Shown here: piece by piece, positions 12,471 to 39,274 of the stretch
Layout of the letters: each line of letters opens with the position of its first letter
Numbering within the stretch: the stretch's first letter is position 1
Source of the DNA: Stegostoma tigrinum
Lineage: Eukaryota
Assembly (NCBI RefSeq): GCF_030684315.1
Contig: NC_081361.1
Span: forward strand, 5,853,014 to 5,917,013
Length of the DNA: 64,000 nt
Direction: 5' to 3'
The notes under the pieces: generated by a model
What the model saw: the letters and a program-made list of their open reading frames with translations, nothing else
The model's database searches: none
What the model was told of the DNA's origin: nothing
Program-made: the position numbers and the translations under genes

Positions 12471-12505
12471 TCAGTCTGAGCTTGGTTCCTTTACCAAACG
12501 TAAGC
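12471..12505 (-). CDS. IGKJ: Ig kappa J segment, cluster A: LTFGKGTKLRL(S)
   Basis: FGxGT motif directly after the heptamer; GTAAGT donor at 12470-12465. Confidence 0.95.
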
Positions 12506-12544
12506 CACAGTGAGAGCTCCCAGTGCAGAGGCTGTACATAAACC
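12506..12544 (-). other. 23-bp-spacer RSS of cluster A J (GGTTTATGT-23-CACTGTG)
   Basis: Nonamer 12544-12536, 23-nt spacer, heptamer 12512-12506; identical to the cluster B J RSS. V12/J23 is the kappa-type configuration. Confidence 0.95.
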
Positions 12545-12668
12545 TCTGCTCTCTTTTCCCTCTGTCACTCTCACCCTCTCTCTGTCTCTCACTCACTCTC
12601 CCTGTCTTTCTCTCTCTCACGCACACTCCTCCTCTCCATCTCTCTGTCTCCCTCTGTCTCTCTTCGTC

Positions 12669-12703
<35 letters not shown>

Positions 12704-13038
12704 CTCTCGTTCACTTGTGTCTTTTTCGCTCTTTGGTTTTCTCATTCTGTTCCTCTCTCTGTCTCTATCTCACCACCGCCACCCCCCAACCCCGTCTCTC
12801 TCTGGTTTGTGTCCAGCTGGGATTGGGTGAGTTTTCAACATTATTTTCGATGTTAAATCTTACAGCTGCTCTTCACATGTGGCCAAGGGAAACATGAGGC
12901 CTTCAGTGAGCGGTGGACACCACAGGGACTGGAGTGTGTAGTGGGCAGTGTCAATTCTGGAATGGGGTCATTTGTTCACTTTCATTTAAATATAACTGTG
13001 GGATGTGTCACTGCAGGGAGTGGTGCTGTGTGTATTGA

Positions 13039-13066
13039 GGTTTCTGTGCAGTTCTGTATCACTGTG
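13039..13066 (-). other. 12-bp-spacer RSS of cluster A V (CACAGTG-12-ACAGAAACC)
   Basis: Heptamer 13066-13060, spacer 13059-13048, nonamer 13047-13039 with one mismatch to consensus. Confidence 0.95.
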
Positions 13067-13364
13067 TCGGCATAGCTCTTATACTGCTGACAGTAATAGT
13101 CAGCGACATCCTCATTCTGAACGTTGCTGATTGTCAGGGTGAAACTTGTCCCTGATCCACTGCCGCTGAATCGCTCGGAGACTCCTGTGAATCGATTTGA
13201 TGCATAATAGATCAGGAGAGAGGGTTTCTGTCCTTCTCGCTGTTGGTACCAAGCAAGGTAGCTGCTAACAGATTGACTGGCCGTACAGGTGATGGTTGCA
13301 GTCTGGCCCAGCCCCACTGACAGCACCGGGGGAGACTGGCTCATGGTGATGTCCCCACTGATAC
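13067..13364 (-). CDS. IGKV: Ig kappa V exon, cluster A, apparently intact: [99 protein letters not shown]
   Basis: Acceptor ctctctgacccctcag; canonical Cys, [13 protein letters not shown] and DVADYYC motifs; ends at the RSS heptamer; resembles shark type III/NS4 (kappa) V. Confidence 0.96.
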
Positions 13365-13550
13365 CTGAGGGGTCAGAGAGAAACACAGTGAAGTCAGAAT
13401 GGTCACAGAAAGAGCCTGTCAAATGAGAGGTTGTTGGAGACACTGAGCATTTCTCATGATTTAGCATTTTCCCTTCAATCACAAGTCAGTGGAATTGGAG
13501 TGAAATGGAGAGCAACTAAAGATTCAAGGTGGGAAGAGAGAGATTTGTAC

Positions 13551-13599
13551 CTGCAACACAGAATGCCAGAGGCCAGATCAGCTGTATGTGTGAAATCAT
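13551..13599 (-). CDS. IGKV: Ig kappa light chain leader exon (L1), cluster A: MISHIQLIWPLAFCVA(G)
   Basis: caccATG at 13599; 49-nt exon (16 codons + 1) ending at a GT donor (13550-13549); hydrophobic signal peptide; nearly identical to the cluster B leader. Confidence 0.95.
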
Positions 13600-13657
13600 G
13601 GTGTGTGCTCCTGTCCCAGTGCCTGGTTCCTGACAAATTCTCCCTTCACTTGGCCCT

Positions 13658-13758
13658 GCTTTATAAAGCTGCAGCCTGCGAGAGTCTTACTGGCTGTTCC
13701 TCAATATGTAAATGGCATCAAGCAGAGAGAGAGCCACGTCAGCCCCTCACACTTCCTC
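13658..13758 (-). promoter_or_regulatory. V promoter, cluster A: PU.1-type GAGGAAGTG (13758-13750), TGACGTGG (13741-13734), octamer variant ATTTACAT (13713-13706), TATA in palindrome GCTTTATAAAGC (13669-13658)
   Basis: Octamer-TATA arrangement typical of IgL promoters; all four motifs conserved in the cluster B promoter. Confidence 0.8.
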
Positions 13759-36115: not shown

Positions 36116-38075
36116 GGGATAGTTCCATGGACTCTGACAGGATGTTCCAACATTTCTCACTTCCCTATTCTGTGTGCGGAAGACTGGAACTGTCAGCAGG
36201 CATTCAATTGCAGCAGTCATCATCACTTTAACCAATTCTATCCAACCTCTCTTTATAACTCAAACTCAGTTATGGAGAGTTGAGGAGGTTGAGGGGTGAC
36301 CTTCTAAAGGCTTATAGAAGAGCAGTATAGATAAAGTGAATGACACATGTCTTTTCCCTCGGGTGGGACATTTCTAGACTGGGGGCATATTATTAGGGTG
36401 AGAGGAAAAAGGTTTATAAAAGACACCAGGGGCAAGTTTTATTTCCACATAGAGTGGTTCGTCTGTGTGCTGAACTTTTCAGAGGAAGTGGTGGTTGTGG
36501 CTATAAGGTTTAACAGGCATTTGGGCAAGTTCATGAAAAAGAAATGTTTGGAAGGATATGGGCCAATCGCGGTCAGATGGGATGAGTTTCATTTGGGAAT
36601 GTGGCCAGTGTGGCCTGGTTGGACCGAAGGGACTGCTTCTGTGCTGTATGACTCTATGACTCTAGAACTGAAACTCTCCAGCCCGGGCAACATCCTGGTA
36701 AATCTCGTCCGCATCATCTGCAGCGATGTCACACCTCTCCTGGAGTGTGGATTCCTGAACTGCACACAATGCTCTCGCTATGGCCTAACTGACTGTTTAA
36801 CAGATCCAGCATAACCTGTCTGTCCTTAAATTCCATACCTCGGCTAATAAAGGTAAGTATCCAAAACACCTTCTTAAACATTTTATTTGCCTGCCCTGAC
36901 ACTCTAAGGGGCTGGTGTACCTGCACACCTGACCCTCAGTGTTTCCCAGATTCCTACCATCCATCATGTATTCCCTTGCGTTGTTTGTCCTGCTCAAGTG
37001 TATCACCTCACATTTATCCAGACTGAATTCTTTTTGCCCCTGATCAGCCCATCTATCCAGTCCGTCTCTATACTCCAGTAATCTGAGCCCCCCTCTTCAT
37101 GATTTACCACTCACCAATTTTGTACCATCTATGAGCTTACTGATCAACCTTTCTCCATTCAAAACTAAATCTTTGACATTAATTACAAACCAACAAGGGC
37201 CCAAATATTGACTCCCATGGGATCCCCGCTAGACGCAGATTTTCAGTCAGAAAAATACTCCTCAACAAGCATCCTCTGCTTCCCTGGACTCAGCACATTC
37301 TGGATCCAATTTGTCAAATTTCCTTTTAGATAGATAGATAGAGAGAGGAATGTCAGAGAGTGGCAGTGAGCGTGAAAGCAGAATATGTGAGAGAAAGGTG
37401 ATTATGAGGGATTTGGAGAAGTGATGGCACTTAATTGTTACACAATTAATTGAGAGATACCAGGAATGTTCTAGGGAACATATTCTGTCACAGTCGATGG
37501 TGGAATTTGAAATTAATATAAAACAAATCTGGAATTAAGAGTCTCATGGTGAACATAAATCATCGATTCACGAATGCCATTTTGGGAAGGAAACTGCCTT
37601 TCTCATCTGGTCTGGGCTACATGTAATGTGGTTGGCTCTCACCTGCCTTTGAGCAACCATGATTGGGCAATGAATCCTAGTTCAGCTAGTAATACCAAAA
37701 GCTGAAGATGAAATTTTTTTAAAAAATCAATAAGAGAGGGAGTGAGTGAGAGAGTGTGTGTCTGTGAGAGAGAGAAGGGGAATTATGAGGGGCTGACGTG
37801 GCTTTCTCTCTGCCTGATGCCATTTACATACTGAGGGACTCACTGCCTGAGAGGCTGGATATGTCACACACTCTAGGAACATTGGAGCAGGGTTTAGATC
37901 GCCACTTGTGTTGCTGTAGCCTCCGGGACTATGGGCCAAGAGCTGGAAAATGCGATTAGAATCATCAGATCTTTGTTGACCAACACAGACACTATAGGCC
38001 AAGAGGCCTCATTCAATGTTGTCATGTCAATGACTGTCAGAGACAGTGAGAAAGAGGCAGAGAGAGTGAGAGGGA

Positions 38076-38179
38076 GAAGAGGAAGTGTGAGGGGCTGACG
38101 TGGCTCTCTCTCTGCTTGATGCCATTTACATATTGAGGAACACCCAGTAAGACTCTCGCAGGCTGCAGCTTTATAAAGC
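38076..38179 (+). promoter_or_regulatory. V promoter, cluster B: GAGGAAGTG (38079-38087), TGACGTGG (38096-38103), ATTTACAT (38124-38131), TATAAA (38172-38177)
   Basis: Same motif order and spacing as cluster A, 60-160 nt upstream of the leader ATG. Confidence 0.8.
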
Positions 38180-38237
38180 AGGGCCAAGAGAAAGGAGAGT
38201 TTATCAGGCACCAGGCACAGGGACAGGAGCACGCACC

Positions 38238-38286
38238 ATGATTTCATATATCCAGCTGATCTGGCCTCTGGCATTCTGCGTCGCAG
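38238..38286 (+). CDS. IGKV: Ig kappa leader exon (L1), cluster B: MISYIQLIWPLAFCVA(G)
   Basis: caccATG at 38238; 49 nt; GT donor at 38287. Confidence 0.95.
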
Positions 38287-38472
38287 GTACAAATCTCTCT
38301 CCTTCCACCTTGAATCTTCAGCTGCTCTCCATTTCACTCCAATTCCATTGACTTGTGATTGAAGGGAAAATGCTGAAACCAGAGAAATGCTCAGTGTCTC
38401 CAACAATCTCTCATTTGACAGGATCTTTCTGTGACCGTTTTGGCTTCACTGTGTTTCTCTCTGACCCCTCAG

Positions 38473-38753
38473 GTATCAGTGGGGACATCACCATGACCCA
38501 GTCTCCCCCGGTGCTGTCAGTGGGACTGGGCCAGACCGCAACTCTCACCTGTACGGCCAGTCAGAGTGCCACTACGGATGTTGAATGGTTCCAGCAGCAA
38601 GAAGGACAGAAACCCTCTCTCCTGATCTACAATGCAGTAGCACGATTCACCGGGAGAGAAGTGTCCAGCACACACTTTACCCTGACAATCAGCAACGTTC
38701 AGAAAGAGGATGTCGCTGACTATTACTGTCAGCAAAGTAGGGCCTACCCTTGG
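38473..38753 (+). CDS. IGKV: Ig kappa V exon, cluster B, open frame but 6 aa shorter after CDR2: [90 protein letters not shown]
   Basis: Acceptor AG at 38471-38472; both Cys and the Trp retained; RFTGREVSSTHF replaces [18 protein letters not shown] of cluster A. Functionality uncertain. Confidence 0.92.
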
Positions 38754-38781
38754 CACAGTGATAGAGAGCTGTACAAAAACC
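38754..38781 (+). other. 12-bp-spacer RSS of cluster B V, perfect consensus (CACAGTG-12-ACAAAAACC)
   Basis: Heptamer 38754-38760, spacer 38761-38772, nonamer 38773-38781. Confidence 0.96.
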
Positions 38782-39200
38782 CCAATACAGACAGCAACAC
38801 CCCCTGCACTGACACATGCCACATTTATATATAAATGAAACTGAACAAATGACCCCATGTGGGATTGTCACTGCCCACTACACACTCCTGTCCTTGTGCT
38901 GTCCACTGCTCACTGAAGGCCTGAAGTTTCCCTCTGACACTCCTTGGCCACATGTGAAGAGAGCTGCAAGATTTAACATCAAAAAATAAAGTTCACAAAT
39001 CTCCTTGACCCAGCTGGATACAACCCAGAGAGAGAGAGGGGGAGACAGAGTGCGAGAGAGAAAACAGAAAGAGAGAAACTGAGAGTGAAAGACATGAATG
39101 AAAAAGAGAAACAGAGAGGCAGGGAGAGGATAAGAATGAGTGAGTTGCAGAGAGAGACAGGGACAGTGGGTGTGAGTGACGGAGGGAAGCAGAGAGCAGA

Positions 39201-39239
39201 GGTTTATGTACAGCCTCTGCACTGGGAGCTCTCACTGTG
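39201..39239 (+). other. 23-bp-spacer RSS of cluster B J
   Basis: GGTTTATGT 39201-39209, 23-nt spacer, CACTGTG 39233-39239. Confidence 0.95.
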
Positions 39240-39274
39240 GTTTATGTTCGGTAAAGGAACCAAGCTCAGACTGA
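39240..39274 (+). CDS. IGKJ: Ig kappa J segment, cluster B: FMFGKGTKLRL(S)
   Basis: FGKGT motif; GTAAGT donor at 39275-39280. Confidence 0.95.

Follow-up and report, generated by a model that had tools for sequence, protein, structure and literature searches.

A head-to-head pair of immunoglobulin kappa miniclusters in the zebra shark with a geometry that would permit inversional joining between clusters

Introduction

In zebrafish, variable (V) and joining (J) segments from different immunoglobulin (Ig) light-chain (IgL) clusters join by inversion over 81 kb, as shown by complementary DNA (cDNA) (PMC3014032). In sharks, joining is described as confined to the cluster, and the lack of inter-cluster joining is ascribed to distance and same polarity, in statements that concern segments within clusters (PMC3014032, PMC5192425). 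The sequence-only reading of the DNA studied here had started from this difference between sharks and teleosts, and the two sources, in the parts that treat it, agree with that premise. Here we analyze a stretch of 64,000 nucleotides from the zebra shark Stegostoma tigrinum (assembly GCF_030684315.1, contig NC_081361.1, positions 5,853,014 to 5,917,013), referred to below as the window. It contains two split kappa light-chain units in divergent orientation, unit A on the minus strand and unit B on the plus strand, with 24,639 bp between their start codons. Unit B has a single V, a single J and a single constant (C) segment; unit A has its V and J in the window and its C outside it.

As in zebrafish IgL, the V segments carry a recombination signal sequence (RSS) of the 12-RSS type and the J segments one of the 23-RSS type, and each V is opposite in polarity to the J of the neighboring cluster (PMC3014032), a match that holds only if the scaffold was joined correctly at 25146-25275. 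Zebrafish clusters, however, are reported to hold several V segments, often inverted with respect to their own J (PMC3014032), whereas here each V shares the polarity of its own J at a distance of 0.5 kb, and joins are deduced from germline geometry. The locus would be like a latent teleost-type substrate for inter-cluster joining, from which it differs in that no V is inverted to its own J and that cross joins are a prediction. The mammalian Igk locus, as described in PMC11153149, shares the kappa-type RSS polarity and has inversion as a normal outcome of RAG activity, but it is organized as a translocon and has a Cer/Sis platform that is based on CTCF.

Among heavy-chain genes (IgH), nurse shark rearrangement is reported to stay inside the minilocus, a single apparent interlocus clone having turned up when 58 thymic VDD-J clones were screened; one or few loci rearrange per B cell, and the closest measured spacing of IgH clusters is 120 kb (PMC2435157). 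Neighboring IgM and IgW clusters of sharks and rays can also lie on opposite strands with their 5' ends facing, as in the kappa pair (PMC12227049, table S1). Divergent IgM pairs of the great white shark are 171,053 and 172,011 bp apart, and stingray IgW pairs 187,263 and 272,891 bp (PMC12227049). Unlike the kappa units, these are heavy-chain clusters and are ~7-11 times further apart. T-cell receptor (TCR) V genes lie between the great white IgM pairs, one pair has genes listed without V or as possible pseudogene, and the word "orientation" is absent from the main text of that paper (PMC12227049). We note that the great white IgM clusters recur as minus-then-plus pairs ~171-172 kb apart, which suggests a large inverted duplication unit.

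Our literature search found no close divergent kappa pair and no inter-cluster IgL joins in sharks, which does not establish absence from print; the Ig-locus supplement of a Vertebrate Genomes Project (VGP) preprint (PMC13320880) may bear on both, and PMC10331284 and PMC8826573 add nothing decisive. New here are two in-frame deletions in unit B, a trans-species lineage to which the V of unit B (V-B) belongs, and the position of the C of unit A (C-A) outside the window.

Results

Both V-J units, with leaders ~24.6 kb apart, and all their features lie where the sequence-only reading had placed them (Table 1). All four RSSs have the heptamer CACAGTG, and each nonamer has at most one mismatch. The window holds four sites with a perfect heptamer and no more than one mismatch in the nonamer, at just these four positions; in 200 block shuffles, the mean was 0.005 such sites and the maximum was 1. 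The polarity of each V is that of its own J. The RSS is on the left in V-A and J-B and on the right in V-B and J-A, so that both cross pairs, V-A/J-B and V-B/J-A, are 12/23 compatible and would join by inversion of ~26.2 kb, a deduction that the sequence-only reading had also made and that the measured coordinates support. From cut to cut, the cross intervals are 26,173 bp (V-A to J-B) and 26,248 bp (J-A to V-B). The intervals between V and J within each cluster, including the RSSs, are 561 bp in unit A and 486 bp in unit B. Each V is therefore ~50 times nearer to its own J than to the cross-cluster J. From the coordinates, the V-A/J-B inversion would leave V-B 1,047 bp from J-A. CTCF-like motifs in the window are uninformative, with 21 matches against 26.8 expected and no enrichment.

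The 23-RSSs of J-A and J-B, which had been reported as identical, match at 39 of 39 bases, and the run of identity 5' of the J coding sequence is 49 bases long; the J segments themselves differ at two residues. We considered whether the identical J RSSs tie A and B to each other in particular, and rejected this, as the same motif is found in kappa models of bamboo and epaulette sharks. Among 56 proteins examined, 12 read through the J RSS. Besides unit B's own model, five of these 12, all from bamboo or epaulette shark, contain the translated RSS motif QPLHWELSLW or PLHWELSLW, and in the remaining six, from more distant sharks, the translation is slightly different. On these comparisons, the identity is family-wide conservation in carpet-shark kappa genes.

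By their sequences, units A and B are split miniclusters of cartilaginous-fish Ig kappa (NS4/type III). Like nurse shark NS4 and horn shark type III genes, unit B is built of single V, J and C segments, of which unit A shows V and J in the window, and the leader intron is 186 bp in both units (PMC2193156). The V-J interval of ~0.5 kb is also NS4-like (561 and 486 bp, versus 502-524 bp in most nurse shark clones), as are a SacI site (GAGCTC) in the J RSS and a PstI site between octamer and leader, according to the clones described in PMC2193156. Compared with the nurse shark protein P0007, V-A is 88% identical and C-B 89%, or 96% when gap columns are excluded, and both adjoin P0007 in trees with moderate support. 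C-B is 72-89% identical to most of the proteins that are named kappa-like in six sharks (nurse, bamboo, epaulette, basking, horn and cat shark). It is 100% identical to the zebra shark model XP_059504210.1 (LOC125456583), which in addition includes the window's leader B, V-B and J-B with both deletions, and which we do not count as independent confirmation. This germline gene model is the sole zebra shark kappa entry among the protein matches listed; no model for unit A and no zebra shark cDNA is among them, which is weak evidence. Kappa gene models are many per chromosome; in the brownbanded bamboo shark, one 135.9-Mb record has at least 13. It is worth noting that two shark-like rearranged kappa light chains, P0001 and P0002, are deposited as Aeromonas veronii and Salmonella enterica, probably through contamination or mislabeling.

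The two units lie in inverted arms. Fifteen anchor blocks, 5,889 bp in total, align arm A with arm B at 69-86% identity, in a chain from 279/44972 to 25038/31003. They follow each other in exactly reverse order (blastn; Kendall tau -1), although this tau describes a chosen chain and is no test alone, off-diagonal hits having been excluded. The anchors were selected from 41 inverted blastn hits as near-unique in the window and on the arm-to-arm diagonal, the rest being repeats or off-diagonal; 13 anchors have two copies in the window and two have three. Identity is higher near the genes, reaching 95% upstream, 94% in the promoter, 92.5% in the leader intron, 94% in framework region 1 (FR1), 91% in FR2, 100% in the 23-RSS and 91% in J, and merely 58% in complementarity-determining region 1 (CDR1). 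This pattern fits an old inverted duplication followed by homogenization or strong constraint around the gene. At 69-86% identity, the arms probably differ too much to represent two haplotypes of a single gene. A homology search found neither C-A nor further V or J remnants in the window, and from the colinearity of the arms C-A should lie just left of window position 1.

Several observations concern the sequence between and within the arms. In unit A, the J-C intron exceeds 12.4 kb, versus 6.4 kb in unit B, and is enlarged by several insertions (3400-11700) that resemble long interspersed nuclear elements (LINEs), one of which holds a 550-codon open frame at 5481-7133 on the minus strand. The central spacer, of 6 kb, contains young local LINE-like rearrangements at 25753-28449, including a 211-bp direct repeat (93%). 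An 80-bp inverted pair near the midpoint of the arms (27422-27501/28370-28449, 92.5%) was weighed as the centre of a fold-back. We rejected this reading, since the pair looks like a stretch of a LINE-like open reading frame, is of more recent origin than the arms and falls wholly inside a single contig.

Two gaps in the assembly, both between V-A and V-B, bear on the relative orientation of the units. The sequence-only reading had pointed out that orientation depends on scaffolding at 25146-25275, and indeed this gap is unbridged; it did not mention the other gap, at 16080-16229, which is bridged by anchors. The flanks of the unbridged gap, which adjoins a CA-rich low-complexity run, give no alignment above shuffles with central or right-arm sequence (scores of 20-25, shuffle maxima of 23-30). 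The true orientation across this gap is one that we infer.

Unit B has an open V and an open C that both depart from the family. In trees, V-B forms a clade with P0005 of catshark, P0038 of bamboo shark and P0011 of epaulette shark (support 94/85, just below the star threshold of the tool), and this lineage is marked by an acidic CDR1 end and by an FR3 with one extra residue. V-B-type genes of bamboo, epaulette and cat shark have the accessions XP_072429354.1, XP_060686026.1 and GCB80945.1. As the lineage is common to four shark species, it is older than those species. It has one member each among the retrieved proteins of catshark, bamboo, epaulette and zebra shark, and C regions, unlike the V-B lineage, group mostly by species or family. 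A "clade III, divergent FR3" group is described for nurse shark kappa genes (PMC2193156); from its description, it may correspond to the V-B lineage.

Compared with these relatives, V-B lacks seven residues after CDR2, between two RFTG repeats, the sole such gap in 28 aligned V regions. The deletion may give V-B a loose likeness to IgNAR V domains, in which the CDR2 region is shortened. C-B lacks eight residues in the region of the D-E hairpin. This C segment is full in 37 of 41 shark kappa proteins, three models end before it, and it is missing only in the model of this gene, that is, in one of the 38 proteins that cover it. Both deletions, of seven residues in V-B and eight in C-B, lie between short repeated motifs. 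The sequence-only reading had proposed the deleted C as a marker of unit B, which stands, but had overlooked the deletion in V-B. In-frame deletions in both V and C set unit B apart from the other shark kappa genes examined. Two substitutions are also unusual: the Met of J-B is found in one of 34 J motifs (Thr occupies the position in 27), and the first-residue Cys of C-B in one of 46 C starts.

Unit B nevertheless has no stop or frameshift, its splice sites and RSSs are kept, and its promoter is 94% identical to that of unit A. Its V and C domains retain both Cys and the Trp and score above the Pfam cut-offs for V-set and C1-set. The deleted C-B is modeled as a C1 sandwich with a predicted local distance difference test (pLDDT) score of 88, matching kappa CL with a Z score of 14.5 and a root-mean-square deviation of 2.5 Å over 98 residues, in a model that had no intact-C control and whose alignment rows contained the missing segment. 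A single-sequence fold of C-B reached a pLDDT of 47, which is meaningless, and was discarded. Unit B is probably drifting, either as a weakly functional gene or as a young or recently decayed pseudogene.

Discussion

The explanation that we favor, with moderate confidence, is that the two units are mostly autonomous miniclusters derived from an old inverted duplication, with rare inversional leakage between them at most. RAG would join each V to its own J in a B-cell precursor, deleting ~0.5 kb, and may occasionally join V-A to J-B or V-B to J-A through the ~26.2-kb inversion. A cross join would have to be the primary event, since once a unit has joined internally neither of its RSSs is left, and both units would have to be open in the same cell. 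Joining within the cluster is probably dominant. In the mouse, nearby strong RSSs are reported to dominate through short-range diffusion, and strong RSSs of the kappa type can be captured diffusionally in either orientation, which supports joining by inversion (PMC11153149). If contact frequency scales as s^-1 to s^-1.5, an assumed law, the share of the cross partner would be 0.3-2%, and cross joins would probably make up at most ~2% of joins.

The sequence-only reading saw in this locus a natural test of inter-cluster joining. The geometry permits it, as described above, but cross joining itself is a prediction, and the own J lies at 561 or 486 bp, against ~26.2 kb for the cross partner. It also took tandem orientation as a refutation of inter-cluster joining; this would refute inversion alone, since tandem clusters also obey the 12/23 rule by deletion, and opposed polarity is therefore not required. 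Polarity alone is never a full barrier. The proposed search for a retained signal joint in B-cell DNA would find it in some cells only: after the V-A/J-B inversion, V-B, then 1,047 bp from J-A, could join it by deletion, and the signal joint would be excised. No second join within the pair removes a first, as deduced from the coordinates, each unit having a single V and a single J. Inversion deletes nothing, and there would thus be no receptor editing within the pair. The combinatorial gain is small, from two to four V-J pairs with near-identical J, and the only real effect is reassortment of V with C.

Several points weigh against this explanation. The estimate of the leakage rate rests on the assumed scaling law, and in-cluster and cross joins alike are predicted from germline sequence. 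The gap at 25146-25275 is unbridged by arm homology. Unit B may be fully active, given its intact frames and signals and its modeled C1 fold. Inversional inter-cluster joining in zebrafish is reported to span 81 kb, so 26 kb is in itself no barrier (PMC3014032). We regard measurable inversional joining of V-A to J-B and V-B to J-A over 26 kb, at 1% or more of joins at this locus and with the orientation real, as a tentative and rather unlikely prospect.

The alternative that survives best, which we still consider unlikely, is strict isolation, with unit B a closed pseudogene, or with the units opening independently and rarely, and with no detectable cross joins despite the geometry. The two deletions and two unusual substitutions of unit B would be expected of such a gene. 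Its reading frames, free of stops and frameshifts, and its conserved promoter, splice sites and RSSs argue the other way, and RAG acts on DNA irrespective of protein function. Split pseudogenes are described among nurse shark kappa families (PMC2193156), and few loci are active per cell in nurse shark IgH, although the one apparent interlocus IgH clone arose even between distant loci (PMC2435157).

Slightly less probable, by a judgement that is no measurement, is a misjoin at 25146-25275 that placed head to head, in the wrong orientation, two true kappa paralogues whose origin would be a tandem array or some other place. Arm homology stops at 25038, 107 bp ahead of the gap, neither gap flank aligns above shuffles, and kappa genes are multicopy, as in the bamboo shark record with at least 13 models, so that misjoins are possible. 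But the gap is short (130 N) and sits beside a CA-rich run, which would be typical of a repeat bridged by read pairs; homology of the right arm ends at a LINE-like piece, identified by eye, which would explain the boundary without the gap; and reads would not cross-map between arms near 80% identity. The other gap is correctly bridged, and divergent neighboring IgH clusters exist in shark and ray assemblies of chromosome level.

Frequent and useful cross inversion (10% or more of joins), in which a teleost-like small locus is opened together via the common upstream region and V-B is rescued onto an intact C-A, is the least probable: four RSSs whose heptamers are perfect and whose nonamers have no more than one mismatch, promoters that face a common 24.6-kb interval, retention of the V-B lineage in four shark species, the zebrafish precedent of 81 kb (PMC3014032) and the diffusional inversion favored by mouse kappa RSSs (PMC11153149) all speak for it, but the own J is ~50 times closer, a short deletional route competes here whereas the teleost V is usually described as already inverted with respect to its own J (PMC3014032, PMC5192425), V-B itself carries a deletion, C-A is outside the window, and the J segments differ by just two residues.

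Mostly autonomous joining with rare leakage would still make this pair informative. Both arguments for shark cluster autonomy, distance and same polarity, are weakened at this locus. With two kappa units 25 kb apart and of opposed polarity, autonomy that follows from distance can be tested against separately regulated access, and sequence markers for A and B are built in (CDR1, the V deletion, the J residues and the C deletion). The question bears on the origins of allelic exclusion and of the translocon. Measurable inversion, if true, would be the first case in cartilaginous fish of light-chain rearrangement between clusters by inversion; shark cluster autonomy would then come from distance, with no dedicated barrier, and teleost-style mixing would be latent in the ancestral minicluster design. 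The shark itself would gain little in repertoire, and other kappa arrays in assemblies of chromosome level probably offer the same test.

Coordinates and minor observations

Table 1 Features of the two kappa units, the arms and the assembly gaps, in window positions.
Feature	Position	Strand	Description	Basis or note
Unit A J-C intron blocks	279..4659	-	inverted homologues of unit B intron 44972-39972	blastn
J-A	12471..12505	-	LTFGKGTKLRL, splice donor GTAAGT	sequence scan
23-RSS of J-A	12506..12544	-	heptamer CACAGTG, nonamer ACATAAACC	RSS scan
12-RSS of V-A	13039..13066	-	CACAGTG / 12 / ACAGAAACC, one nonamer mismatch	RSS scan
V-A exon	13067..13364	-	conventional kappa V, intact, CDR1 SQSVSSYLA	88% identity to nurse shark NS4 cDNA protein
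Leader exon A	13551..13599	-		ATG 13599; 186-bp intron 13550-13365
Promoter A	13600..13725	-	octamer-like ATTTACAT at 13706-13713, TATA-like box	94% identity to promoter B
Gap 1	16080..16229		150 N	bridged: colinear inverted anchors either side
Arm A upstream anchor blocks	19321..25038	-	inverted homologues of 36186-31003, 80-85% identity	blastn
Gap 2	25146..25275		130 N	unbridged by homology; relative orientation of A and B hangs on it
Central spacer	25276..31002		mostly decayed LINE-like retroelement pieces	sequence search
Promoter B	38112..38237	+	octamer-like ATTTACAT at 38124-38131	sequence comparison with promoter A
Leader exon B	38238..38286	+		ATG 38238; 186-bp intron 38287-38472
V-B exon	38473..38753	+	open frame, divergent lineage, CDR1 SQSATTDVE, FR3 REVSSTH	7-residue in-frame deletion near 38643-38654
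12-RSS of V-B	38754..38781	+	CACAGTG and nonamer ACAAAAACC, both consensus	RSS scan
23-RSS of J-B	39201..39239	+	CACAGTG and nonamer ACATAAACC	RSS scan
J-B	39240..39274	+	FMFGKGTKLRL	Met at position usually Thr
C-B exon	45717..46021	+	open frame, first residue extra Cys	8-residue in-frame deletion near 45886; AATAAA at 46552

The promoters of both units contain motifs that we take to be octamer-like and TATA-like. A partial second copy of promoter B, including the octamer-like motif, is found ~300 bp upstream at 37733-37839 and has no counterpart in arm A.

A coding exon of a neighboring gene lies on the minus strand at 48869-49060, tail to tail with C-B and ~3 kb downstream of it. Pfam gave this exon no name (one sub-threshold match) and PDB returned 0 matches. 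It may resemble the C-terminal coiled coil of RABGAP1/RABGAP1L, a likeness that no tool confirmed.

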